Of a stretch of DNA of 64,000 bases, positions 9,071 through 64,000 are shown piece by piece. Numbering within the stretch: position 1 is the stretch's first letter; each line of letters begins with the position of its first letter. Below the pieces are notes generated by a model. It saw nothing but the letters and a program-made list of their open reading frames with translations, did no database searches and was not told the DNA's origin. The stretch is taken from the IMG/VR virus record IMGVR_UViG_3300037307_000895; one strand, written 5' to 3'. The translations under genes were made by a program, and so were the position numbers. The DNA is from an uncultured virus (IMG/VR IMGVR_UViG_3300037307_000895) (taxonomy: Duplodnaviria > Heunggongvirae > Uroviricota > Caudoviricetes).

Positions 9071-12000
9071 ATGCCGACTCAAACTTCTTATCATACTGTA
9101 GCAGAACAGGTAATTACGTTTAATAATAATTTAATAGAGACTCTATCAAAAATAAATCAATTGGCTACTACGGACGAGTCTACCATTACAGTTAATATTA
9201 CCGATCAATCTGGAATTGTTAGACAGTTTTCTATACCATCTTTTAATTTTTTAAAATCTGAGATAGATAGATTAAATAATAATATTAATTCTATTTATAA
9301 TATTGATAGTACGGGTGCTATGATACAAACATCATCCTCTAACAAATTTAAAAAGGTTGTAACTGTTGATCTTAATAGAGAACCCAATGATATATCTAGT
9401 TTAAATAGTATATCTACTTTCTATTCTAATAAAAATTGGTTTTTTGAGGGATTAATGAATCCTGAATTAACCATTGAAATAGATTTAAGTCAAAAAATAG
9501 AGGAAAATGTTAGAAAAATTTTAAGTAGAAGATATATCGTTGAGTTTGAGAAAGATAGTACAGGTAGTTTTACTACAACTGGTCAATCTGCATTAAATAG
9601 TTTTAATACCTTATTTAGAAATAATAATGCAATTGTTTTAAATGAATTTGAAACTTGGCATAGAACAACACCTGGTGTTTTGAATCCTGATAGTCCTACT
9701 TATGATGAACAAATGTTTGACTTATTACCTAATCAAGTCGAATACAATGGTTTATTTACTGTTGTGAAGACTGAAGAAGATACATTGAATAGGAAATTAT
9801 GGTATCATTTAAACACTTTAGATTATGTTAACAATTTAACAGGAGAAGTTAGACAATTAAATGTTGGTAATGAATTAATCATAAATAGCTCTATTGCTAC
9901 TACAAAATATAAAATAGTAGAAGTGTCTACTGTTTCTTCTAATCCTAAAGTTAGATTAGAAAGAGTAGAAGGTAATGATCCTATTCCAGTTGGGTTGAAT
10001 ACACTTAAAATATATTCATCTGTTTTTTATAATAAAAGAGTTAGGGTATCAATAGGGTATGATGAAAGAAATGTTATTTTTATCAAGCCATTGAATATGG
10101 ATAATTTTTTATTATCAAGAAATTGGAGTAGTGGAACTGGATTTTGGACTAATGATCTTAGATTATCATCGAATGATACTTATAATGGATCAACTATGGA
10201 AAAATTCTATGTTGATAATGTTTATGACTATGGCCAAGTTATTAAAGATTTGGTGGCAAAAAAGATACCAAATACTTTATCAACTCCTCCAAATTCTCCA
10301 ACTCTAAATCCTGCTAATTTTAAAGTTCTTCAAATAAATAAGCATTTAACTGATAATTCAGATTCAAATTTATTGAAGAATAAAAATAATCAACAGAAAT
10401 CTTTAAAGTCTGAAATTGACCAAATTAATGAGGCTATTTCTGAAAAGAATAAACAATTAAGAGTTACAAGATTCTCATCTGATGCGGCACGCAAACAATT
10501 TGAAAATGAATTGGATAGATTAATTAAAAGTAAAGATACTAAAACTAAAGCTTTGAATAGTTTAGTAGCTGAAATATTGGAAATATCAAATGCTGCCGGT
10601 AGTTCTGCTGATTATAAATTCAGATTAAGAGGATTCTGGGATATTCCTTTACCAGTAGTAACCAAAGGAACAAAACCTCAAGAGGTTATACAATTTATAA
10701 TCGAATATAGATATTTAAGTATCGATGGTAAAGAAACACCAATTGAAACATTTACCATTGATAATGATAACAATAAAACCGCTTCTTTTTCTAACTGGGT
10801 ACAATTAAAATCAGAGGTTAGAAGTAGAACATTTAATCCTGAAACAGGGGAATATACTTGGGATCCTGAAGATATTTCAAATCCTGATGCTGTTAATATA
10901 AATCAGGTAGATATACCTATAACTTATAATGAGAGAGTAGAATTAAGAGTTAAATCTGTATCTGAAGTTGGATGGCCAGAATCGCCCGTGATGTCGGACT
11001 GGTCTGATGTTATATCAATTGATTTCCCAGAAGAATTGAGTAATAATTTAAATCAAACTGATGCTATTATTACTGATGCTAATAAAGAGGATATTAAGTC
11101 TAGTATTGAATCTGATCTTAGTGCAAAGGGTTTAGATGTTCATCTATCTGAAACAACTGTAGTTAATAATAAACAATATTTACATACTACTTCAACCATT
11201 TTATCTGGATTTAAAGATTCAAATGGAACTGCTTTAGATTTATTTGAATATCTTTCATTTTTAGAGAATAGAATCAAATCATTAGAAGAACAAATTAAGA
11301 GAGCTAAGGGTGAACTTGAAGTTATTGTATTTAGAAATTCGGAACAATTTATAGTTAAAAATGGTTCAGAGTTAACATTCACTATTGAGTGTGAAGATTA
11401 TTTGGATTCCTATGTAGCAACAGGAGTTCCAACTGGCAGAGTTTATGCTAATAATATTTATTTAATCAAGGATTTCTTATTAAAAGTTAGAAATAAATCT
11501 GCAGATTCTCCTTTAGGATTATTATCAAATAGAACTTACGTTAATTCCACAAACACGGATGTTTATAATCAAAGTGCTCCGCAGATTTTTTGGGTTAATG
11601 ACCAAAACGAATTAATATTTTCAAATGTGACAGGTGATACAAAAACACAATTAGATAATCAATTTATATGGATGGTAAACTATGACAGTGTAAACCAAAC
11701 AGCAATTACTAAGTTATCTGATAATGTTGGTAATAACTTTATACAGTCAAATAGTAATTCTATAACTAGTATATTATCCTCATCTGAATTTAATACAGGA
11801 TACTCAGAAAATTCAATATTAACATTTGTTGGGAACAATAACTCATTAATGGATGTTTCTAAATGGATAGATAATACAATAAGTGTATCTAGTACAAATA
11901 AATTATTAACCACAGTACATCCATCTATCCCAAGATTGGAAAATATTGTAGAGACAAATGCTGAAAAAGTTAGAACACTTGATGGAGGTGCTCAAAGTGA

Positions 12001-17306: not shown

Positions 17307-18398
17307 ATGAATAGAAAATTTATTACTAAGAAGCTTAAGATGATGGAATTAAGCGAAGACTTTGATTTTGACATGGAGAAGTATGAAAGGGAATTTGAAA
17401 TAAAAAATTCGTTACTTCAAAAAATGTATGATGGCTATGAATTCGATGCTCCGGAGCATGGACAAATTGTAAATGCTACCTATGTTGGAGTAACCAATGA
17501 TTACTTTATGTTCGAAGCTTCATTTAAAGATTACATTAGAGTAGAAAACAGACCTAATGAAGCTAAGTACCTCAAAAATACCAATATTGGAGATAAGTTG
17601 GATGTCGCCATTGTTGAGTTAAATGAAGAAAAGTATATTATTAGGGGTAGTTTATCTGCTCTCTATGAAACACGAGCACACGAAACACTCAAATCAATTG
17701 ACGAAGATCAACACGTTAGTGTCTTCATAAGAGAATCAACACCGGCCGGATACAATGTTGATATTCTTTATGAGGGTGTAACTCTTCCAGGATTTATGCC
17801 AAATACGTTGGCTGGTATAAACAAACTTTACGATGTTGACTCAATTGTAGGTAAAAGTTTAGAGGTAATGATCGAATCATTCTCTAGAGAAGAGGGCACT
17901 TATATTGTTAGTCGTAGAAAATATCTTCAGACTTTAATACCAGAGGCAATTAAAGAATTAAAGAGAGGAGAAGTCTATAACGGACACGTTACTGGAACAA
18001 CACCTTTCGGAGTATTCGTAGAATTTGGTGAATGCTTAACAGGAATGATACATAAAACAAATATCAATCCAGATTGGCAAGATAAGATTAGTCAAATTCA
18101 AACTGGAACTGAAATTAATTTCTATGTTAAAGAGATTATAAAAGATAAAATTATCTTGACTCAAATTTTGAGAGAATCTCTTTGGGACACAATCAAAGTT
18201 GGACAAACTTTAGAAGGTAAAGTTAGGGATAATAAACAGTTTGGAACCCTAGTTCAATTGGATGATGAGACTATCGGACTTATTCATGTCTCTGAATTAG
18301 AAAAGACTAATGGAGAAATTAAATCTGGTCAATCCATTAAGGTTAAAGTCATCGCCGTCGATAGACATAATCGAAAAATCTTCTTAACAGTAATGTAA
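17307..18398 (+). CDS. Ribosomal protein S1-like multi-S1-domain protein
   Basis: About four S1 repeats: GFMP..., VSRRKYL, GHVTGTTPFGVFVEF...GMIH, GKV...FGTLVQL...GLIHVSEL...VKVIAVD...KIFL. Confidence 0.85.
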   Translation: MNRKFITKKLKMMELSEDFDFDMEKYEREFEIKNSLLQKMYDGYEFDAPEHGQIVNATYVGVTNDYFMFEASFKDYIRVENRPNEAKYLKNTNIGDKLDVAIVELNEEKYIIRGSLSALYETRAHETLKSIDEDQHVSVFIRESTPAGYNVDILYEGVTLPGFMPNTLAGINKLYDVDSIVGKSLEVMIESFSREEGTYIVSRRKYLQTLIPEAIKELKRGEVYNGHVTGTTPFGVFVEFGECLTGMIHKTNINPDWQDKISQIQTGTEINFYVKEIIKDKIILTQILRESLWDTIKVGQTLEGKVRDNKQFGTLVQLDDETIGLIHVSELEKTNGEIKSGQSIKVKVIAVDRHNRKIFLTVM

Positions 18399-19552: not shown

Positions 19553-21169
19553 TTATAAAGAATTTTGAATTCTTTTTACAGTTTCATCTTTACCCAAGAT
19601 ATACATAGTCGTAACCAAATCTGGACCTGGAACACCACCAGTTACAGACACTCTCAATGATGGCATCACTTTACCCATTTTAACCCCATTATCGGTACAA
19701 GTATCGAAAATCAATTGCTTGATTTTATCTGATTCCCAATCAATATCATCAACTTTTGTTACAAAGTCAGAGAATACCTTTTTATATTCAGCAGAAAGGC
19801 TATTCAAATCTTTTTCAGATAAAACCACAGGCTTGAAGAAGATGTCAGTTACAACATTCAAGTCAGTTTTGAATGTACTTCTTTTCTTAGCTAAATCTAC
19901 AATCATAGCCATTTTATCATCAGAATATTTATAAATATCACCCATGTTAATATTCTTCATCAATTCATCATCTGATTTATTTTGTAAATAGTTACTATTG
20001 AACCATTTTGCTTTATCAATATCAAATCTAGCTCCCGCTTTATGCACTCTATCTAATGAAAAATCTGAAATCATATCAGCCATTTTATAAAGCTCTTTAC
20101 CATCAGTTGGTGCCCATCCTAAAAGAAGTAAGAAGTTAATAAGAGCATCGGGTTCATAACCTTCGTCTTTAAAACCTTTATATTTAACAACATTACCCTT
20201 ATCATCTACACCTTCACCACCGAATGGAAATACAGGAATACCGTATTTGATACCATCTCTCTTAGAAAGTTTTCCACGGCCATCTGGACGAAGAATAGAT
20301 GGGAGGTGAGCAAAAATTGGAGGATTCCAGCCAAATGCTTCGTATAACATAACGTGAAGAGGGGCGGATGAAAGCCATTCTTCACCTCTGATTACGTGAG
20401 TAGTTCCCATATCATGGTCGTCACAAACACTAGCCATGTGATAAGTAGGAATACCATTTGATTTAACCAATACTTTATCATCAACTTGAGCACTATTGAA
20501 TGAAACATCTCCTCTAACAATATCATTGAAAGAGATTGTTTTATTTTCAGGAACTTTAAATCTTATAACATAAGGTGCACTCGAATCTAACAATTTATCA
20601 ACTTCTTCTTTTGACAACGAAAGAGAGTTTTTCATATTCATTCGTGACTTAGCATCATAAGCAAAATTTTGATTTTCACTTCTGGCTTTAGTCAAATCTT
20701 TTTCAGTATCAAAAGCATAATAAGCATGACCCGCATCTAAAAGAGTCTTGATGTGTTTACTATAGTCTCTTTCAGATTGGCGATAGGGGCCATTCGGACC
20801 ACCTTTCCATGGATCCCAATCAGGTTCAATTCCGCACCATTCCAAAGCATTTTTAATGTAGTCTTCCGCTTCGGCAACAAATCTTTTTTGGTCAGTATCT
20901 TCAATACGAATATAGAATATACCACCATGTTTTTTAGCAAATAAGTAGTTATACAAAGCAGTACGAATGCCTCCAATGTGTAAGAATCCAGTTGGTGAAG
21001 GAGCAAATCTTGTTACTACTTTACCACTTACTTGTGCATCATCCAAAGCATCTAAACTTTTTTGTACATCAGGACTTTGATTTTCATCATTGTCCGATAA
21101 TATTTCCAATGCATTATCTTTTAAATCTTTAGATTCTAGAAACTTTTGTCTGTTCTTAATATACTTCAT
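19553..21169 (-). CDS. gltX: Glutamate--tRNA ligase with about 48-aa N-terminal extension
   Basis: TRFAPSPTGFLHIGG, RIEDTD, GPYRQSER, THVIRGEEW, KLSKR, C-terminal anticodon-binding domain. Confidence 0.95.
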   Translation of the reverse strand: MKYIKNRQKFLESKDLKDNALEILSDNDENQSPDVQKSLDALDDAQVSGKVVTRFAPSPTGFLHIGGIRTALYNYLFAKKHGGIFYIRIEDTDQKRFVAEAEDYIKNALEWCGIEPDWDPWKGGPNGPYRQSERDYSKHIKTLLDAGHAYYAFDTEKDLTKARSENQNFAYDAKSRMNMKNSLSLSKEEVDKLLDSSAPYVIRFKVPENKTISFNDIVRGDVSFNSAQVDDKVLVKSNGIPTYHMASVCDDHDMGTTHVIRGEEWLSSAPLHVMLYEAFGWNPPIFAHLPSILRPDGRGKLSKRDGIKYGIPVFPFGGEGVDDKGNVVKYKGFKDEGYEPDALINFLLLLGWAPTDGKELYKMADMISDFSLDRVHKAGARFDIDKAKWFNSNYLQNKSDDELMKNINMGDIYKYSDDKMAMIVDLAKKRSTFKTDLNVVTDIFFKPVVLSEKDLNSLSAEYKKVFSDFVTKVDDIDWESDKIKQLIFDTCTDNGVKMGKVMPSLRVSVTGGVPGPDLVTTMYILGKDETVKRIQNSL

Positions 21170-22952: not shown

Positions 22953-22983
22953 TTTGATAATTAAAAAATATTTCGTATCTTTG
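22953..22983 (+). promoter_or_regulatory. Bacteroidota sigma70-type promoter
   Basis: tttg 22953-22956, tatctttg 22976-22983, 19-nt spacer. Confidence 0.75.
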
Positions 22984-31272: not shown

Positions 31273-31304
31273 TTTGGTGGTTTCAATAATATTTCGTATC
31301 TTTG
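31273..31304 (+). promoter_or_regulatory. Bacteroidota sigma70-type promoter
   Basis: tttg 31273-31276, tatctttg 31297-31304, 20-nt spacer. Confidence 0.75.
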
Positions 31305-34737: not shown

Positions 34738-35122
34738 ACTACCAAGAAACATTCCTCCAGGTAGTTTGCATAACTTTTCCGAAGAACTTTTAGAATTAAA
34801 CGAAAGATACATCTTCCTAAAAGGATGGTGTGATGTTATTGATAAAACAGTCAAGGATAATAACTATTGGATAATCTTGGGGAAATCAGTAGATGATATG
34901 ATCAAAGAATACTTTGATAATTCTGAATTTGAATATCCTGATGGTGAATATGAATATGATATTTGTGTCAGAATAACACCAACCTATTTTGATGATATGG
35001 GTAGAATCACCGAACAATCATATTTAGAACCTGAATATGAGAAATTTACCTTGATACAAACCATCGAACAAAGAGAAAGAGATAAATCAATTGATACAAT
35101 TTTAGACCTAAATTTTATATAA
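34721..35122 (+). CDS. Hypothetical protein, C-terminal RDKSIDTIL tag
   Basis: ORF 133 aa. Confidence 0.55.
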   Translation: MKKRYELPRNIPPGSLHNFSEELLELNERYIFLKGWCDVIDKTVKDNNYWIILGKSVDDMIKEYFDNSEFEYPDGEYEYDICVRITPTYFDDMGRITEQSYLEPEYEKFTLIQTIEQRERDKSIDTILDLNFI

Positions 35123-36566
35123 TTTCTACCGGATACCCCCATAAATATTCTATATAAGGAATTACTTTTTCTTTATTTAGAATGCCTTTATTATCTAATG
35201 GAGTATATTTAAGTGTTAATTTTCTATCACCGAATAAATCAACATTAACTATTTGTATATCCGGCACATAATAACTTCTATTATATTGCTTAGATAATTG
35301 TTCTCTTATAATCTTGTATCCATTGTCATTATGTATATGTTTAACTAAATAATGATCTTTCTTTTCATCATCATTTAATGTGAATAATTTCATATTTCTA
35401 ATTACATTAGGAGATAAATATTGATGTATAAAAGTATCATCTTTAAAGTTCTCAACAATATATAAAATAGTCTCTTTCCAATTTTTATTACCAGCAATAT
35501 AAGGAAACCATTTTTTATCTTCTTCTGTTGGATCAATCGACATTCTTTTTACGTCTTTAAGAATATTAAATCCTAATGTATAAGGATTAATTCCACTATA
35601 ATACTTACTATCAAAGTCAGGTTGATATATTACATTTGAATGATGATGAAAAAATTCTAACATAAATGAATCACTCAAATAATCATCATCAAACATCTTA
35701 TTAATGATTTCATAGTGTGCAAAGGTAGCTATCCCTTCATTAAGGACCTTAGTTTGCGCTTGAGGATAAAAATATTGTGATATCTTTCTAACTATTCTTA
35801 TTATTTCTCGCTGCCATTCTTTTAATTTTGGAGAATTTTTTTCAATAAAATAAAGTATATTTTCCTCTGGTTGTTCTGGAAAACTAATTTGTGTGGTTAT
35901 TCTATTGTCATTTTGTTGTGGAAGTGTTTTCCATATTTCTGTCAATAAAATTCTATCATCATCAATTTTAGAAGATAATCTTTCCTTTTCTTCAATAGTT
36001 GATATTTTACTTGGTTTTTTATATTTATCAACACCATATTCCATTAGTGAGTGACAAGAATCAAGCATTAATTCCACCTCTTCATATCCATATTTTAGTT
36101 CACAATTTCTAATATAATTTTTAGCAAATATCATGTAATCGATGATAGAATCAGCATGTGTCCATTGTTTGAATAAATAATTATTTTTGAAATAATGATT
36201 ATGTCCTTGCACATGAGCATAAACGAGAGTCATCAAACAAGTATTATTTGTTTCCAAATTATAAGAGATACATGGATTGGAATTTATAACCATTTCATAA
36301 GAAAGACCCATTCTTCCTTTTTTGTACATATTTTCATTTGAAATAAAATCTCTCCCAAATTTCCAATGGTCATAAGAAAGTGGTAGGCCAATTAACGAGT
36401 AAGCATCTAATAATTGTTCGTATGTTACAATTTCAAATTGATTAGGATATACATCTAATCCTAAATGACTTATTGAAATATCATCTATAATTTCACTAAA
36501 AGTAATTATAGTATCTTCGTTCCATTCGGAATTATCTAATATTTTTTTTACTTCATCTTTACTCAT
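35115..36566 (-). CDS. spoVR: SpoVR/YcgB family protein
   Basis: GLP.SY.HW.FG, YEMVINSNPCISY, AHV.GHNH.FKNN, YFYPQ.QTKVLNEG.A, NPY.LG, LWGYPVE. Confidence 0.92.
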   Translation of the reverse strand: MSKDEVKKILDNSEWNEDTIITFSEIIDDISISHLGLDVYPNQFEIVTYEQLLDAYSLIGLPLSYDHWKFGRDFISNENMYKKGRMGLSYEMVINSNPCISYNLETNNTCLMTLVYAHVQGHNHYFKNNYLFKQWTHADSIIDYMIFAKNYIRNCELKYGYEEVELMLDSCHSLMEYGVDKYKKPSKISTIEEKERLSSKIDDDRILLTEIWKTLPQQNDNRITTQISFPEQPEENILYFIEKNSPKLKEWQREIIRIVRKISQYFYPQAQTKVLNEGIATFAHYEIINKMFDDDYLSDSFMLEFFHHHSNVIYQPDFDSKYYSGINPYTLGFNILKDVKRMSIDPTEEDKKWFPYIAGNKNWKETILYIVENFKDDTFIHQYLSPNVIRNMKLFTLNDDEKKDHYLVKHIHNDNGYKIIREQLSKQYNRSYYVPDIQIVNVDLFGDRKLTLKYTPLDNKGILNKEKVIPYIEYLWGYPVEII

Positions 36567-37822
36567 TTAGTTTCTTTATTTTTGGAAAAAAATCTAGTGA
36601 ATAATGGCCATATACCATTTAATTTTTTAATTATCCCATAATCAAAATTTTTATTACTTATCCTTTCATAGGAATTCATTAGACCGCTGGTATCAAGCAT
36701 GTCAGATACTTCAACATACCAAGCCCATTGTATTTGAGATAATATTTCTTTTAACAGTTTTTTTGATAGTGTTGCATCTGATTTATCCCATACATCACCA
36801 TCTGATATTTGTGTTAAATAAATATTATGCTCATTAGTAGAATATCTTTTATTTATTATTTCTTTAGCTAATTTTAAGGCATTACTAACAATTGTTCCCC
36901 CTGTTTCTTTAGAATTGAAAAATTCTTCCTCGTCAACTTCCTTCGCCTCAGTGTGATGTCTGATATAAACAATTTCTATCTTTTCATATTGTTTATTTAA
37001 AAACAAATATAATAACATAAAAAATCTTTTCGCAATATCTTTATGAAACTCAGTCATACTACCTGAAACATCCATTATGCATATCATAACTGCTGATGTT
37101 ATTGGGTAAGGTTTTTGTTCGTAGTTATTATATTTTAAATCTATATCATCCATAAATGGTATAGATTTCTTCATTTTAATGAATTTATCTAATTCTTTTT
37201 TGAGTTCTTCTAATTTAGATTCATCAGTTTCTTTAGATATTTTTTCCTCTATTTCTTTTATTTTTTTATCAAAAAATAAAATTGTGGCCATTTTTCTAAT
37301 TAAAGAGTTTTCATAAGACTTTGTTACACTTAATCTATTTGGTGTTCCTTGGTTTGAATAGCCAGATTTTTTTAATTTGTTCTTAGTTATTGTATTAAAA
37401 TGCTTTTTAACTAAATCGGGTAACTCTAAATCTTCGAAAAAATAATCCAAAAACTCATCTTTATTTATTGTTATTGTAAATTCATCTTCTGATATTTCTC
37501 CACCATTTGAAGCTCCTTTACCAGATCCCTTACCCTTACCTTTTTCTTTTTTGATCTTATCTCCTTCAGAGAATTCTTTATTTCCTGGTAATATAATATC
37601 ATTTTCACCACTTTTTCTGTCATATTGAAAATGCGGATCATCTATCCTTTTTATGGGAACCTTTATTTTATCATTAGAAACTATATCTTTTATATCAGTA
37701 TTTTTAATAATTCCAGGTAAAGCTTCTTTTATTTGATTTTTTACTCTATTTAAAAATCTTTGTCTGTTTTCAGAAGATTTTCCTTTACTATTATTTCTTC
37801 TATCAAGAATATTTATTCCCAT
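36563..37822 (-). CDS. yeaH: YeaH/YhbH (DUF444) vWA-like protein
   Basis: DRR...KS.ENRQRF, PGNKEF..GD, FEDLELP, MDVSGSM, IRHHTEAKEVDE..FF...ETGGT, SDGD. Confidence 0.92.
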   Translation of the reverse strand: MGINILDRRNNSKGKSSENRQRFLNRVKNQIKEALPGIIKNTDIKDIVSNDKIKVPIKRIDDPHFQYDRKSGENDIILPGNKEFSEGDKIKKEKGKGKGSGKGASNGGEISEDEFTITINKDEFLDYFFEDLELPDLVKKHFNTITKNKLKKSGYSNQGTPNRLSVTKSYENSLIRKMATILFFDKKIKEIEEKISKETDESKLEELKKELDKFIKMKKSIPFMDDIDLKYNNYEQKPYPITSAVMICIMDVSGSMTEFHKDIAKRFFMLLYLFLNKQYEKIEIVYIRHHTEAKEVDEEEFFNSKETGGTIVSNALKLAKEIINKRYSTNEHNIYLTQISDGDVWDKSDATLSKKLLKEILSQIQWAWYVEVSDMLDTSGLMNSYERISNKNFDYGIIKKLNGIWPLFTRFFSKNKETK

Positions 37823-37825
37823 TTA

Positions 37826-39757
37826 TTAATTTGAATTTTTTCTAATCCTTAAGAACCATTCAGTTAAAAGCTTTATTTGCTTAATAGTATATCCTCTTTT
37901 TTTCATCCTTTCTACAAAATCATTGTGTTTTTTCTCTTCTTCTTTGGAAGCTTTTGTATTAAAAGAAATAACAGGTATTAAATCTTCTGTTTTTGAGAAA
38001 ATTCTTTTCTCAATTACATTTCTTATTTTTTCATATGAATCCCATGTTGGTGATTCCCCATTTTTGGCTTTGTGTCTTAGATAGAATTGAACAATATCAT
38101 TCCTGAAATCTTTTGGATTTGCTATACCCGCAGTTTTTTCCATTTTTTCTAATTCATCATTTAATAATTTTCTATCAAATTGTTGCCCAGTATCTGGATC
38201 TCTGAAATCATTATCTTGACACCAATGGTCCGCATATGTGACATATCTTTCAAATAAATTCTGGCCATATTCATAGTATGAGTCTACATAAGCTTTTTGA
38301 ATTTCATCTGCTATGAATTCCGCATATTTAGGAACTATATTAGATTTTAAAATATTAAGGTAATATTCTTCAGTTTCTTTATGCAACTGCAATTTCATTA
38401 TTTCTTGCTCTAAAATATAGAATAAATGAACTGGGTTAGCAGCTACTTCTTCATTGTCATAATTAAATACTTTTGATAGTACTTTAAATGCAAATCTTGT
38501 TGATATACCAGCCATGCCTTCACTTACACCAGCATCATCTTTATATTCTTGTAGTGATTTTGACTTTAAATCCACTTCTTTCAAATTTTCACCATTATAA
38601 ACTCTCATCTTAGAAAATAAAGATGAATTTTCGGTTGGTTTAAGTCTTGTCATTACACAAAATTGAGCTAATAACTCTAATGTTAATGGGGAACAAACAC
38701 ATTTTGATAAAGATGATTCTCTTAGTAATTTTTTATATATCATAACTTCTTCATCAACTCTAAGACAATATGGAACTCTTACTATATTTACTCTATCTAA
38801 GAAAGCCTCATTTTTTTTATCATTAGAGAAAGTTTCCCATTCTGATTCATTCGAGTGTGCTAATATTATACCTTGGAAAGGTATTGGAGGCAAATTTTCT
38901 GTACCATTATAATTACCTTCTTGTGTTGCAGTTAATAGAGGGTGTAATATTTTAATAGGGGCTTTGAACATTTCAACAAATTCCATTATACCCTGATTTG
39001 ATTTACATAAAGATCCTGAATAGTTATAAGCATCTGCATCATTTTGTGGGAATTCTGCCAATTTTCTAATATCAATTTTACCAACTAATGATGATATATC
39101 TTGATTATTTTCATCACCAGGTTCTGTTTTGGATATTCCAATCTGTGATGATATTGATAATTTAATTCTTCTAACCTTAAATTTAGAAATATCTCCGTTA
39201 AATTCATCTAATCTTTTCGTTGCCCATGGTGATGGACAAGATGGAACATATCTTTTTGGAATTCCATATTCTTCTTCTAATTTATCTTTATAAGATGAAA
39301 AAAGACCTAAAGGACTTTCCCATACTGGAGAAATATCATTATTTGCTACTAAAACATAAATATATGTTTTTTCCATTAATTGCTTAAGTCTTTCAGATAT
39401 AGAGCTTTTACCACCACCCACAGGACCTAATAAGTATAATATTTGTTTCTTTTCTTCTAATCCTTGTGCGGCATGTTTAAAAAAGGATACAATTTGTTCT
39501 ATCGTATCTTCCATCCCATAAAATTCTGAAAATGCTGGGTACCTTTTAATTAGTCTATTAGAATAAATTCTTCTGAGTCTATCATCTAATTTTGTGTCAA
39601 TTAATTCTGGTTCCCCTATAGATTCTAACATTCTTTCGTGAGGACTCATATAATGTTTTTTATCTTCAGAACATAGTTTTAAATATTCTTCGATACTTAT
39701 ATCCTCATTTTTTAAATTAAAGTCCTTTTTTATTTCTTTAAATAAACTCATAATCAA
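37826..39757 (-). CDS. prkA: PrkA/YeaG family AAA+ serine protein kinase
   Basis: AAQGLEEKKQILYLLGPVGGGKSS, EPGDENNQDIS.LVGK, EFVEMFKAPIK.LHPLLTATQEGNY, AHSNESEW, NEAFLDR. Confidence 0.95.
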   Translation of the reverse strand: MIMSLFKEIKKDFNLKNEDISIEEYLKLCSEDKKHYMSPHERMLESIGEPELIDTKLDDRLRRIYSNRLIKRYPAFSEFYGMEDTIEQIVSFFKHAAQGLEEKKQILYLLGPVGGGKSSISERLKQLMEKTYIYVLVANNDISPVWESPLGLFSSYKDKLEEEYGIPKRYVPSCPSPWATKRLDEFNGDISKFKVRRIKLSISSQIGISKTEPGDENNQDISSLVGKIDIRKLAEFPQNDADAYNYSGSLCKSNQGIMEFVEMFKAPIKILHPLLTATQEGNYNGTENLPPIPFQGIILAHSNESEWETFSNDKKNEAFLDRVNIVRVPYCLRVDEEVMIYKKLLRESSLSKCVCSPLTLELLAQFCVMTRLKPTENSSLFSKMRVYNGENLKEVDLKSKSLQEYKDDAGVSEGMAGISTRFAFKVLSKVFNYDNEEVAANPVHLFYILEQEIMKLQLHKETEEYYLNILKSNIVPKYAEFIADEIQKAYVDSYYEYGQNLFERYVTYADHWCQDNDFRDPDTGQQFDRKLLNDELEKMEKTAGIANPKDFRNDIVQFYLRHKAKNGESPTWDSYEKIRNVIEKRIFSKTEDLIPVISFNTKASKEEEKKHNDFVERMKKRGYTIKQIKLLTEWFLRIRKNSN

Positions 39758-59404: not shown

Positions 59405-60010
59405 ATGTTAAATTCAACGGCAATTAAATCATTTTCAGAACACGAAAAAATCTTTAAAGAAAGAACAGGAAACGACTTTACTCATTTTTACAAAAAGTAT
59501 TATCCAAAATTAATTTACTACACATCAAAAATGTGTAATGATCAACAAAAAGCAGAAGATGTCACTACTGAATCATTCATGACAGCCTTCGAGAAAATCG
59601 ACAAATACGAAAAAGAAAAATCACAATTTTCAACATGGTTATTTACTATTGCAAGAAATATCATGTTGCAAGAAATTAAAAATCAAAAGAAAACAATATC
59701 CATTGATGTTGAAGTGGACGAAGAAGGCACCACTCTTAAGGATTTTATTCAAGAAGAAGACTCAAAAGAACATATTGTTGACTTATCTACAAGAAAAGCA
59801 GATATAATGAAAAATCATATATCTAGACTTAAAGACCCTTATAAAAAAGTAATTGAAATGAGGGAAATTAAAAAGATGGCTTATAAAGATATCGCAGAAG
59901 AACTTGGCAAGAATCTGTCAACAATTAAATCACAGATAAGAAACGGAAGAGCTTTACTTATAAATCAAACTAAAAAAGAGTTTGATATGCTCGACGAAAT
60001 GTACTTATAA
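59405..60010 (+). CDS. ECF-type RNA polymerase sigma factor
   Basis: AEDV...F..AF.KI..Y...QFSTWLFTIARN (region 2); YKDIAEELG...TIKSQI..GR (region 4). Confidence 0.9.
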   Translation: MLNSTAIKSFSEHEKIFKERTGNDFTHFYKKYYPKLIYYTSKMCNDQQKAEDVTTESFMTAFEKIDKYEKEKSQFSTWLFTIARNIMLQEIKNQKKTISIDVEVDEEGTTLKDFIQEEDSKEHIVDLSTRKADIMKNHISRLKDPYKKVIEMREIKKMAYKDIAEELGKNLSTIKSQIRNGRALLINQTKKEFDMLDEMYL

Positions 60011-61283: not shown

Positions 61284-61718
61284 ATGTATTGCCCTCATTG
61301 TAAAAAATTGAATAAATGTTTCTGCTCTAATTGTAATAAAAATTCTGAAACAGAAGGAGTGATTATAATAGATAGGGAACATAATATGTACCGTTGTTAT
61401 TTTTGTGGAGAATTATTTCATGAACAAGACTCTGCGGATTATGAATGGGATATGATGATTGAAAGATTTGCAAGAGAAATATCTCCAGATGATTGTTTAG
61501 ATTGGTGGGAGTATGGTTTTAATAAATTTTTAAAAAATTTTAAAGAAATATCATATATAGAAGAAGAAAAAAAGAGAATTAAAAAATTAAAAGAAAAATA
61601 TGGAGAATTTGCATTAGAGCAAGCATTTAAAATTCACTTTAAATATCACCCAGACAATATAAATTGGGAAATATTTTATAAACTTAAACGAGAGAACACA
61701 ATAAATAAATTATTATGA
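61284..61718 (+). CDS. Zn-binding hypothetical protein, C-terminal RENTINKLL tag
   Basis: CPHC...C.C..C...CYFC. Confidence 0.6.
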   Translation: MYCPHCKKLNKCFCSNCNKNSETEGVIIIDREHNMYRCYFCGELFHEQDSADYEWDMMIERFAREISPDDCLDWWEYGFNKFLKNFKEISYIEEEKKRIKKLKEKYGEFALEQAFKIHFKYHPDNINWEIFYKLKRENTINKLL

Positions 61719-62146
61719 AAATTTCAAATAGAAAAGCATATTACGAATATAATATCATTAGAGAATTCATCTGTGGGATCAAATTACTTGGTTCTGAGGT
61801 AAAATCATTAAGAAATGGTGAAGCCAATATGCAAGACTCATATTGTTATGTTTTTAATAATGAGGTTTTTGTCAAGGGTCTTCATATTTCAAAAAACAAA
61901 ATGTCTTCTTATAACAATCACGAAGAAAAGAGAGATAGAAAATTACTTTTAACGAAAAAAGAAATCAGAAATATAATAGGTGAGACAAAGGCTAATAATG
62001 GTATGACTATTATTCCTTTGGAAATATTCGAATCCAACGGTAAATTTAAAATCAAAATAAGCTTAGCTAAAGGTAAAAAACTTCACGATAAACGAGAGTC
62101 AGTCAAGAAGAAAGAAATGGATAGAGAAATTAAAAATTACACATAA
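61715..62146 (+). CDS. smpB: SsrA-binding protein SmpB
   Basis: NRKAYYEY, G..L.GSEVKSLR, NH...R.RKLLL.KKEI, AKGKKLHDKRE. Confidence 0.95.
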   Translation: MKISNRKAYYEYNIIREFICGIKLLGSEVKSLRNGEANMQDSYCYVFNNEVFVKGLHISKNKMSSYNNHEEKRDRKLLLTKKEIRNIIGETKANNGMTIIPLEIFESNGKFKIKISLAKGKKLHDKRESVKKKEMDREIKNYT

Positions 62147-62510: not shown

Positions 62511-62634
62511 ATGGTTTGAATGGATTTTTGATTTTTACATCGCACACTTTCTATATAACGAAAGAAAACTATACAGATATGATCGTTATATGAAAGAAAA
62601 ATGGGGTGATAAATATACTAAAATTAAAGACTAA
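62497..62634 (+). CDS. Small ORF not in track (45 aa, MKIIKWFEWIFDFY...)
   Basis: Open frame overlapping the upstream stop. Confidence 0.45.
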   Translation: MKIIKWFEWIFDFYIAHFLYNERKLYRYDRYMKEKWGDKYTKIKD

Positions 62635-62761
62635 ACATAGACTTCAATTTAGTCCAAAAATTTTTTAATAAAGATACAGAAGCCTTTATTATTTGTTTAT
62701 CATTAATCCAAATATCTGCAACTAAAATAACCGCAAATATAATACCTAGTAATTTAATCAT
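62624..62761 (-). CDS. Small membrane protein not in track (45 aa, MIKLLGIIFAVILVADIW...)
   Basis: Hydrophobic N-terminus; TAATATATA at 62781-62789 (-) upstream. Confidence 0.4.
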   Translation of the reverse strand: MIKLLGIIFAVILVADIWINDKQIIKASVSLLKNFWTKLKSMFSL

Positions 62762-62872
62762 AATTGTAATTTATTTTCGATATATATTAGATATAAAAAA
62801 AGAATTTAGTCTAAATATGGAAAAATTTTTGGTTTTTTAAACTTTTTTGTATCTTTGTGTTATAAATAACAA

Positions 62873-63098
62873 CTCGACACTTGATTTATTAGAAAATAAA
62901 TTAAGATAATAAAGGTAGAGTGTCAGAGCTTTATGATGGTAAGTAGTGACGAAATAGGCTTCTACTTCTCCAAGTCGAAAATTCACGAACCATCAAAATG
63001 TAAATTTAATAATTATATTAAATGAAACGGAGAAGGGGTTTAAGTAATATTAGTGGCATCGTTACTTATTATACCTATTAAGATGGATGTCACATTTT
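62873..63098 (+). ncRNA. Candidate independently transcribed structured ncRNA
   Basis: TATCTTTG at 62850-62857 upstream, strong hairpin downstream, no sizeable ORF, multiple helices and pseudoknots. Confidence 0.55.
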
Positions 63099-63106
63099 AG
63101 AAAAAA

Positions 63107-63138
63107 TTCCCCCTAATTGAAAAATTAGGGGGAAATTT
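63107..63138 (+). terminator. Strong hairpin, probable terminator
   Basis: ttccccctaatt-gaaa-aattagggggaa; short T-run on + strand, A-run upstream. Confidence 0.65.
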
Positions 63139-63177
63139 ACTAAAAGAGAGAATAAAAAGTTAATATATAAAAAAAGA

Positions 63178-63209
63178 TTTGGTGGATTCAAAAAGTCACC
63201 GTATCTTTG
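63178..63209 (+). promoter_or_regulatory. Bacteroidota sigma70-type promoter of the tRNA operon
   Basis: tttg 63178-63181, tatctttg 63202-63209, 20-nt spacer. Confidence 0.8.
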
Positions 63210-63242
63210 TGAAACAAATAAACAAATAAAAATATAATAGTC

Positions 63243-63341
63243 ATGTCATACGTTAGCAAACATAAACATTTTAGTAAGTTCCATTTTTGGTTTATCACCA
63301 AGAGTTCAGGAGCTATTGCTGATTTGTTTTATGACGAATAA
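63243..63341 (+). CDS. His/Phe-rich attenuator leader peptide (MSYVSKHKHFSKFHFWFITKSSGAIADLFYDE)
   Basis: 32-aa ORF with 3 His and 4 Phe in codons 7-17, between promoter and terminator. Confidence 0.75.
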   Translation: MSYVSKHKHFSKFHFWFITKSSGAIADLFYDE

Positions 63342-63366
63342 CGTGATTTAACAAAAGTAATAGGTG

Positions 63367-63398
63367 AAACCCTGAACTCAAAAAGTTCAGGGTTTTTT
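63367..63398 (+). terminator. Attenuator terminator (3:4 hairpin)
   Basis: aaaccctgaact-caaaa-agttcagggttt plus T-tract; 5' arm can instead pair with gagttcagg 63302-63310. Confidence 0.85.
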
Positions 63399-63418
63399 AT
63401 TGCTAAATTTTGATGATT

Positions 63419-63592
63419 ATGAAAACAATAAAACTAATCGCGAAAGCGAAGTTGAATATAAAGTCTCTCAAGGAAAAAAATAATAAATCAGAACTTCTGA
63501 TTGAAGAAAGTTGGTTAAAGTATCTTGAGAACAAAAGAAGAGAAGAGATAAAAGATAGGTCACTTATCATAGATAAAATACCTGTCATGTAA
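63419..63592 (+). CDS. Small basic protein lacking His and Phe
   Basis: 57 aa from ATG 63419; first gene after the attenuator. Confidence 0.5.
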   Translation: MKTIKLIAKAKLNIKSLKEKNNKSELLIEESWLKYLENKRREEIKDRSLIIDKIPVM

Positions 63593-63595
63593 TAT

Positions 63596-63686
63596 GGTGT
63601 CGTTGGTCCGAGTGGTCGAAGGAATCTGGCTGTGAACCAGAATGAGTGAACAACAAACAACACGGGTTCGAACCCCGTACGACACC
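63596..63686 (+). tRNA. tRNA-His(GTG), atypical, with about 20-nt variable region
   Basis: 8-bp GGTGTCGT/ACGACACC (G-1:C73), TCTGG-CTGTGAA-CCAGA, ACGGG-TTCGAAC-CCCGT. Confidence 0.8.
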
Positions 63687-63692
63687 CAAAAT

Positions 63693-63764
63693 GGAGACGG
63701 TAGCTCAGAGGGTAGAGCAACGGCAGAAAACCGTGTGTCGTTGGTTCGATTCCAGCCCTCTCCA
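63693..63764 (+). tRNA. tRNA-Phe(GAA), atypical (A33, bulged acceptor stem)
   Basis: GGAGAcGG/CCTCTCC, GCTC/GAGC D stem, ACGG-CAGAAAA-CCGT, GTTGG-TTCGATT-CCAGC. Confidence 0.7.
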
Positions 63765-63774
63765 CGAAACATAA

Positions 63775-63847
63775 GGTGCGGTATCTCAGTTGGTAGAGCG
63801 TGGGCCTGAAGAGCCCAGCGTCGGCGGTTCGAATCCGTCCCGCACCA
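63775..63847 (+). tRNA. tRNA-Phe(GAA) with G37
   Basis: GGTGCGG/CCGCACC, TGGGC-CTGAAGA-GCCCA, GGCGG-TTCGAAT-CCGTC, A73. Confidence 0.9.
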
Positions 63848-63857
63848 CTAAAAATAT

Positions 63858-63933
63858 GGTAAACAAGCTAACTTAGTAGAAGCGTTGGTCTGAAAAACCA
63901 AAGGATCCAGAGCGTAACTGGAGTTTACCACCA
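63858..63933 (+). tRNA. tRNA-Phe(GAA), atypical T-loop, encoded CCA
   Basis: GGTAAAC/GTTTACC-A-CCA, TTGGT-CTGAAAA-ACCAA, TCCAG-AGCGTAA-CTGGA. Confidence 0.8.
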
Positions 63934-63938
63934 AATAT

Positions 63939-64000
63939 GGAGTTTGTAGCTTAGTTGGTTAAAGCGTCAGTTTGTGGCACTGAAGAGCGTGGGTTCGAAT
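63939..64000 (+). tRNA. tRNA-His(GTG), truncated by window end
   Basis: GCTT/AAGC D stem, TCAGT-TTGTGGC-ACTGA, GTGGG-TTCGAAT. Confidence 0.85.

Follow-up and report, generated by a model that had tools for sequence, protein, structure and literature searches.

To our knowledge, leader-peptide attenuation has been described for amino-acid synthesis and for a synthetase operon, not for tRNA genes. In the pheST attenuator of E. coli, the pheM leader is a short Phe-rich open reading frame (ORF), accompanied by alternative hairpins and an intrinsic terminator. The ilvGMEDA (Ile/Leu/Val) and thr (Thr/Ile) attenuators have multivalent leaders and serve amino-acid synthesis. In the trp and his leaders (trpL, hisL; RF00513, RF00514) the terminator is the more stable fold and the choice between folds is kinetic. 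Finally, the T-box riboswitch binds tRNA directly and needs no ORF. Here we describe a leader unit that stands before an array of tRNA genes at positions 63178-64000 of a 64,000-nucleotide (nt) stretch of DNA from an uncultured Caudoviricetes virus (IMG/VR record IMGVR_UViG_3300037307_000895), hereafter the window. Very probably, a phage tRNA operon is gated here by a leader-peptide transcription attenuator, ribosome-mediated and multivalent, which ties tRNA supply to decoding speed.

The unit resembles pheST in its leader ORF, in its three competing hairpins (1:2, 2:3 and the terminator 3:4) and in that the genes under control serve translation rather than biosynthesis. It differs in its cargo, which consists of tRNA genes (plus synthetase-like genes in some relatives), in a leader that mixes five amino acids, and in being phage-borne with a Bacteroidota-type promoter. 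With ilvGMEDA and thr it shares the presence of codons for several amino acids in one leader, where any shortage can give read-through. Those leaders report amino-acid supply, whereas the product of the phage unit is tRNA and its loop would close on decoding capacity. As in trp and his, the position of the ribosome would select antiterminator or terminator, but the phage 1:2 hairpin covers almost the whole ORF.

The T-box is alike in its logic, in which scarce or uncharged tRNA leads to an antiterminator and switches on genes of the aminoacylation system; no T-box match was found at E up to 10 in 62600-64000. None of the Rfam leader families for His, Phe, Trp, Thr or Leu reached its gathering threshold, the best score being that of Thr_leader (23.6 bits against a threshold of 55, E = 0.095), over the terminator region. 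The class of mechanism is known; the tRNA cargo and the feedback logic are new. In the full-text literature we found no paper on leader-peptide control of tRNA genes; older subscription literature lies outside this scope, and a precedent there is possible.

All parts of the unit lie on the plus strand. A motif scan places the promoter at 63178-63209, with TTTG at -33 (63178-63181) and TAnnTTTG at -7 (63202-63209). We take this pair to be the Bacteroidota promoter consensus, and a host-type promoter had been proposed at this place in an earlier note made from the letters of the window. The leader ORF has 32 codons plus a stop and occupies 63243-63341; it is the His- and Phe-rich frame with a Trp that the same note had reported as missed by the gene track. 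In terms of content, codon alignment delimits a sensed run at codons 5-17 (63255-63293), composed exclusively of Ser, Lys, His, Phe and Trp codons. The His codons are CAT at codons 7, 9 and 14, Phe stands at 10, 13, 15 and 17 and Trp at 16, and the rest are Ser or Lys. The proposal that the leader senses His and Phe is supported with one amendment: both codon sets match tRNAs, and the sensed set is wider, with Lys, Ser and Trp filling the run.

As for the RNA, segment 1 (63239-63291, from the minimum-free-energy helices) is the 5' side of a long 1:2 hairpin and spans the start codon and the sensed run. Segment 2 (63297-63348, from folding) is its 3' side and includes, at 63302-63310, the 5' strand of the antiterminator. 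The antiterminator (2:3, 63302-63379) has a core of 63302-63310 with 63371-63379 and inner helices of 63313-63320 with 63356-63363 and 63323-63328 with 63350-63355. The intrinsic terminator (3:4, 63366-63398; -17.8 kcal/mol) is a 13-bp stem, 63366-63378 with 63384-63396, followed by a T-run; it had first been described as 12 bp at 63367-63398. In 3 kb, a terminator scan gives 4 such sites, where shuffled sequences would lead one to expect 1.0.

Between terminator and tRNAs lies an ORF of 60 codons with no assigned function (63410-63592). The tRNA calls then give a 91-nt tRNA-His (GTG; 63597-63687), whose G-1 and C73 are read from the sequence, three different tRNA-Phe (GAA) genes (63693-63765, 63775-63848 and 63858-63933) and a tRNA with the GTG anticodon of His (63940-64000). 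The order His, Phe, Phe, Phe, His given before is confirmed, the last gene being cut by the window end at 64000.

In the mechanism that we propose, transcription would start at the promoter, and a ribosome would translate the 32-codon leader through its run. With fast decoding, or with an untranslated leader, 1:2 would hold segment 2, 3:4 would form and transcription would stop at about 63398. A ribosome stalled in the run would cover segment 1 and free 63302-63310, which would pair with the emerging 63371-63379. RNA polymerase would then proceed through the small ORF to the genes for tRNA-His and tRNA-Phe. In relatives, read-through would also reach Trp, Lys and Ser tRNAs, a histidyl-tRNA synthetase (HisRS)-like gene and a tryptophanyl-tRNA synthetase (TrpRS) gene. 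The products of read-through would relieve the stall, a negative feedback by which the supply of these tRNAs would be held at translation's need. That stalling controls read-through is inferred, as are the timing and the natural trigger, which may be tRNA depletion by starvation or by nucleases of defence systems, a mismatch in codon usage or shut-off of the host.

The unit recurs. Ten further distinct copies were found, which makes 11 with the window, in three subtypes. All reside on contigs that belong to very large uncultured phages; one of these is the public record LR756502.1, of 642 kb. They come from pattern scans of viral contigs and metagenome contigs, plus a walk along the tRNA blocks of LR756502.1. 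Type A comprises the window and loci L064, L078 and L122, with the same promoter; the stretch 63178-63209 is nearly identical in L064 and L078. Type B comprises L001, L010, L076, L121, L123 and L125, where the leader has no promoter of its own and directly follows a tRNA-Met gene. Type C is L138 in LR756502.1, with its own promoter of the same motif class. The homologous leader ORFs have 28-31 codons in the 10 other loci. The search for leader-plus-terminator units in relatives, which the earlier note had named as a check, returned these 10 copies, all with the leader ORF kept.

The leader pattern had 0 matches in 185,579 species genomes and 0 in LR756502.1, LR745206.1 and LR756501.1; the copy in LR756502.1 emerged by the tRNA-block walk only. 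The exact terminator pattern had 0 matches in viral contigs, and blastn of 62800-64000 against cultured and deposited phages gave generic tRNA likeness only. With a pattern anchored on the 91-nt tRNA-His, the contig of L001 was the sole match. A looser leader pattern returned 113 viral stretches, mostly unrelated, from which only those with a full ORF were kept. Mini-ORFs of 8-12 codons ending in His-Lys-His are present in many unrelated viral contigs (L021, L031, L039, L055, L063, L099, L103 and others).

Considering the codons that vary within subtypes, those in the run (5, 11 and 12 in type A, 4 in type B) change synonymously only, in 4/4 cases. In the tail past the run, the amino acid is altered at 8 of 9 variable codons in each type, 16 of 18 in total. 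The synonymous-only changes argue for a leader that is translated. Between subtypes, the order and the length of the run differ, and no residue outside the set Ser, Lys, His, Phe and Trp enters it; in type B, this set accounts for each of the 14 residues that follow the start. A sensing leader predicts such preservation of composition without preservation of sequence; a functional peptide does not.

This bears on a different explanation: the ORF would encode a small functional protein with a leaky terminator of the ordinary kind behind it, constitutive read-through or a promoter that escaped recognition would supply the tRNAs, and the likeness to an attenuator would be a coincidence. Within subtypes, the N-terminal 15-17 residues are strictly conserved, as such a protein would have it; the terminator is strong and favoured at equilibrium, and in the window a 198-nt gap with an ORF separates it from the tRNAs. 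The unconserved tail and the loss of sequence between subtypes speak against a small protein, and so does the way in which segment 2 tracks the terminator arm. We regard this explanation as very improbable.

On a 10-sequence alignment (A2), that tracking is seen in the pairing counts. Of the 70 cells of the 2:3 core, 69 pair, and 2 of its 7 pairs have changed on both sides (A-U, G-U and G-C at one; G-C, U-A and U-G at the other); when the partner is slid by 1-3 columns, pairing falls to 11-57% of cells. In the terminator, 97% of cells are paired, and 3 of 12 pairs have changed on both sides. In type B, the core that the terminator shares with segment 2 does not vary at all, unlike the outer stem and the loop, which are free to differ. 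Single low-depth contigs from a second population (run X3) have 0 differences in codons 1-17 or in the 2:3 core, their differences clustering at the linker 63345-63367 and at 63295.

Folding places the same structures in the window. The RNA 63225-63400 has a minimum-free-energy fold of -52.9 kcal/mol (z = -8.3), which 0 of 200 shuffles match. This best fold is the long hairpin over nearly the whole ORF (63239-63291 with 63297-63348; -34.3 kcal/mol alone), then the terminator. The three 1:2 helices drawn by eye in the earlier note are exactly those of this fold (63283-63291 with 63297-63305, 63277-63282 with 63309-63314 and 63271-63276 with 63317-63322). Its 9-bp 2:3 pairing is also real, and is the best site in the ORF for the 5' arm of the terminator (-12.4 kcal/mol, equalled by 2 of 500 dinucleotide shuffles). 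An apex hairpin stands over the Trp/Phe codons in all three subtypes, with its register shifted in type A.

The best ORF partner of the terminator arm lies at codons 18-24 in 8/8 evaluable loci, and in six loci 2-7 of 500 shuffles equal the real site. This arm-to-ORF test, like the stall folds on cut transcripts below, excludes L078 and L122, which both share the arms of L064. With the sequence 5' of 63302 masked and the transcript ending at 63379, the extended 2:3 structure is the best fold of the window, at -29.5 kcal/mol. We then modelled a stall in the window, L064, L001, L010 and L076 by placing a ribosome on codons 12-16 and cutting the transcript behind segment 3. Extended 2:3 is the best fold in 5/5 of these evaluable loci (-17.7 to -26.8 kcal/mol); in L138, folded separately in the same way, the 2:3 helix is also the best fold. 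With no ribosome modelled, 1:2 forms and segment 3 is free in the window, L064 and L001; nascent 2:3 is dependent on the modelled stall in 3 of 5 loci.

The codons of the leader match the genes that follow. His and Phe tRNAs lie downstream in every copy. A Trp tRNA is downstream in 8 of the 9 copies with an uncut block and is absent from the fetched block of LR756502.1. Lys tRNAs with UUU and CUU anticodons follow in L001, L076, L121, L123 and L138, and a Ser tRNA in L123 and L125. The attenuator layout and the codon-to-tRNA match put forward from the window are upheld by this recurrence in 10 loci, together with the synonymous run changes and the two-sided pair changes.

In the type A relatives, the first gene past the terminator encodes a 207-aa HisRS-like core (PF13393, E = 4.8e-18), and a TrpRS gene comes after the array. 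A classical attenuator for these two genes, responding to amino-acid or synthetase needs with the tRNAs as passengers of the operon, would account for this arrangement. We consider it very improbable, since tRNAs, but no synthetase gene, follow the terminator in the window, in each of the six type B loci and in LR756502.1, and the leaders of other blocks (see below) precede tRNAs only. In the window, the 60-codon ORF occupies the place of the HisRS-like gene; it has no Pfam or PHROG match, and its product has no similarity to the HisRS-like protein of the relatives. The HisRS-like catalytic core of the closest relatives has no anticodon-binding domain, and an HNH endonuclease gene lies inside their tRNA array. 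In L122, the HisRS-like, HNH and TrpRS features are jointly listed at 493-1116, 2487-2879 and 1502-2233.

Dependence of the tRNAs on read-through, as expected of an attenuator, is suggested by the sequence behind the terminator. A separate promoter downstream of 63398 had been named in advance as evidence to the contrary, and a scan for this promoter type alone found no TAnnTTTG on the plus strand of 63210-64000. In type A relatives, the gene begins about 18 nt past the T-run. In type B, the T-run ends no more than about 10 nt before the first tRNA, which leaves no room for a promoter there and speaks against the small-protein explanation.

The position of the type B leader, directly behind tRNA-Met and with no promoter of its own, would also fit hairpins that serve the processing or stability of pre-tRNA, for example at the 3' end of the upstream tRNA-Met unit, with the ORF untranslated. 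Structured spacers are common in tRNA operons. Against this, the synonymous-only run change argues for translation, and the copies of types A and C each have a promoter and are not preceded by a tRNA. A role in processing also leaves the match of composition across many leader families, described next, unexplained, and we hold it to be very improbable.

Attenuator-like leaders are not limited to the His/Phe array. G001 (the contig of L001) has 36 tRNAs, G002 (that of L076) has 45 and LR756502.1 has 50, sorted by amino acid in all three. Nearly every tRNA block in these genomes has its own short ORF and terminator, the ORF being rich in the amino acids of the block. The leader and block sets are Tyr/Glu/Gly/Ala; Asn/Ile/Leu/Val/Thr/Cys/Arg; Leu/Met; Asp/Pro; and Ser/Arg, and in a Gln set 5-7 consecutive Gln codons precede 3-4 tRNA-Gln genes. 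In G002, the true pairing of seven leaders with seven blocks is the best of 5040 permutations, and each block ranks its own leader first. The arm-to-ORF test supports 2:3 in 5 of 10 units of these other families (0/300 twice, 4/300 twice and 20/300). Unrelated leaders, each spelled in the amino acids of its own block, would not be expected of unrelated small proteins.

Singleton tRNAs differ in this respect. No leader-terminator unit was found in the upstream sequence read for tRNA-Arg (53092) and tRNA-Cys (55847) in the window, nor for the singleton tRNA-Arg and tRNA-Met in LR756502.1. We see about even chances that the huge Bacteroidota phages of this clade have all their tRNAs arranged in amino-acid blocks, each behind a codon-matched attenuator. 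Jointly, these would gauge host decoding capacity codon by codon, and the phage would top up only the tRNAs that ribosomes are waiting for, including after host tRNA degradation or cutting by anti-phage nucleases.

Several observations weigh against the attenuator as we propose it. The window itself shows only His and Phe tRNAs, the match of Trp, Lys and Ser coming from relatives. The covariation amounts to few events in three clades. L121 (49/500) and L123 (56/500) give only a weak result in the arm-to-ORF test; in LR756502.1 the partner is at codons 21-23, has other letters and also tests weakly (71/500). In the other leader families, the test is not significant in the remaining 5 of 10 units. 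The cut transcripts of L010 and L076 fold into 2:3 even without a ribosome.

Full-length equilibrium folds, furthermore, keep the terminator under the stall mask; it is absent from the best full-length fold in a single stall state of L064 and L078. The fold check with sensed codons masked, suggested in advance, gives 2:3 for the cut transcript and the terminator for the full transcript. With the terminator favoured at equilibrium, the choice must be kinetic and made during transcription. Finally, 29 nt separate segment 2 from the stop codon behind it, and a ribosome that has reached the stop leaves segment 2 uncovered, a difference from trp and his. Termination in a replete cell would then have to rest on refolding of 1:2 or on the timing of ribosome transit.

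If the proposal is true, this would be the first described regulation of phage tRNA genes. The decoding speed at given codons would be what is sensed, and the product would be tRNAs for the same codons, which makes a direct feedback loop. The main text of a study of huge phages does not contain "attenuat", "leader" or "terminator" (PMC7162821). For decades it has been argued whether phages carry tRNAs to compensate for codon usage or to replace those that host defences destroy (PMC10264068, PMC11464382). A tRNA block switched on only upon stalling at its own codons would fit the replacement role and makes that idea testable. The leaders may be seen as a list of the tRNAs whose shortage the phage anticipates. 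Compact and modular, with a promoter, about 30 codons and a terminator, the units are candidate sensors of codon-specific translation speed in Bacteroidota.

In terms of other promoters in the window, motifs of like class are found at 22953-22983, 31273-31304 and 62828-62857 on the plus strand and at 8341-8311 and 4492-4461 on the minus strand. The recurring word is TTTG and then, about 20 nt on, a common TATCTTTG-type -7 box. Judged by this recurrence, the word suggests one class of phage promoters read by a host sigma factor. The promoter at 62828-62857 and a two-way terminator at 63107-63134 enclose a structured unit of 280 nt. This unit (62828-63135; -67.1 kcal/mol, z = -4.6) has no Rfam match, is absent in relatives and has 0 matches in viral contigs. 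It lies closely downstream of an SmpB gene (61715-62146), near which neither ARAGORN nor Rfam finds a tmRNA.

Several of the tRNAs are unusual. Some that belong to classes with a short variable loop run to 81-91 nt (63597-63687 in the window, 11539-11629 in L001, 1638-1724 in L010, and others in L123, L121 and L122). The long tRNA-His of the window retains G-1, C73 and the GTG anticodon, and its variable region, about 20 nt in length, consists largely of A and C; relatives also have long Lys, Phe and Trp tRNAs. In the first tRNA-Phe of the window (63693-63765), A replaces the near-universal U33. Its counterparts in L078 (2374-2450) and L122 (1214-1290) have anticodon loops that ARAGORN could not assign. 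Altered anticodon loops of phage tRNAs have been proposed as an escape from tRNA-cutting defences (PMC10264068). In L001, a hairpin of about 60 nt without a tRNA call (11475-11538) lies between the two tRNA-His genes of the array.

Lastly, the window belongs to a very large phage. Its proteins include a UvsX-like recombinase, homing endonucleases, an NAD ligase, SmpB and a 1061-aa protein with PHROG matches only. Two deposited genomes of uncultured phages, one of 642 and one of 635 kb, encode proteins with 59-60% identity to the latter. Remoter matches of the 1061-aa protein are in a 735-kb genome, in Lak phages of Prevotella and in jumbo phages of Tenacibaculum, Chryseobacterium and Flavobacterium. 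The contigs G001-G005, which hold L001, L076, L064, L078 and L010 in this order, are 69-190 kb long with a CheckV completeness of just 13-31%, in line with genomes of 500 kb or more. According to the main text of the huge-phage study, its five genomes above 634 kb have predicted Bacteroidetes hosts and belong to the "Mahaphage" clade (PMC7162821).

Further translation and transcription genes in the window include a synthetase of the glutamyl- or glutaminyl-tRNA synthetase (GluRS/GlnRS) type (19553-21169, minus strand), an S1-domain protein (17307-18398, plus strand) and an ECF-like sigma factor (59405-60010, plus strand). A trio of genes for a PrkA kinase, DUF444 and SpoVR lies at 35115-39757 on the minus strand (Pfam, E = 1e-140 to 1e-165). 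This trio is known from bacterial starvation and sporulation regulons.

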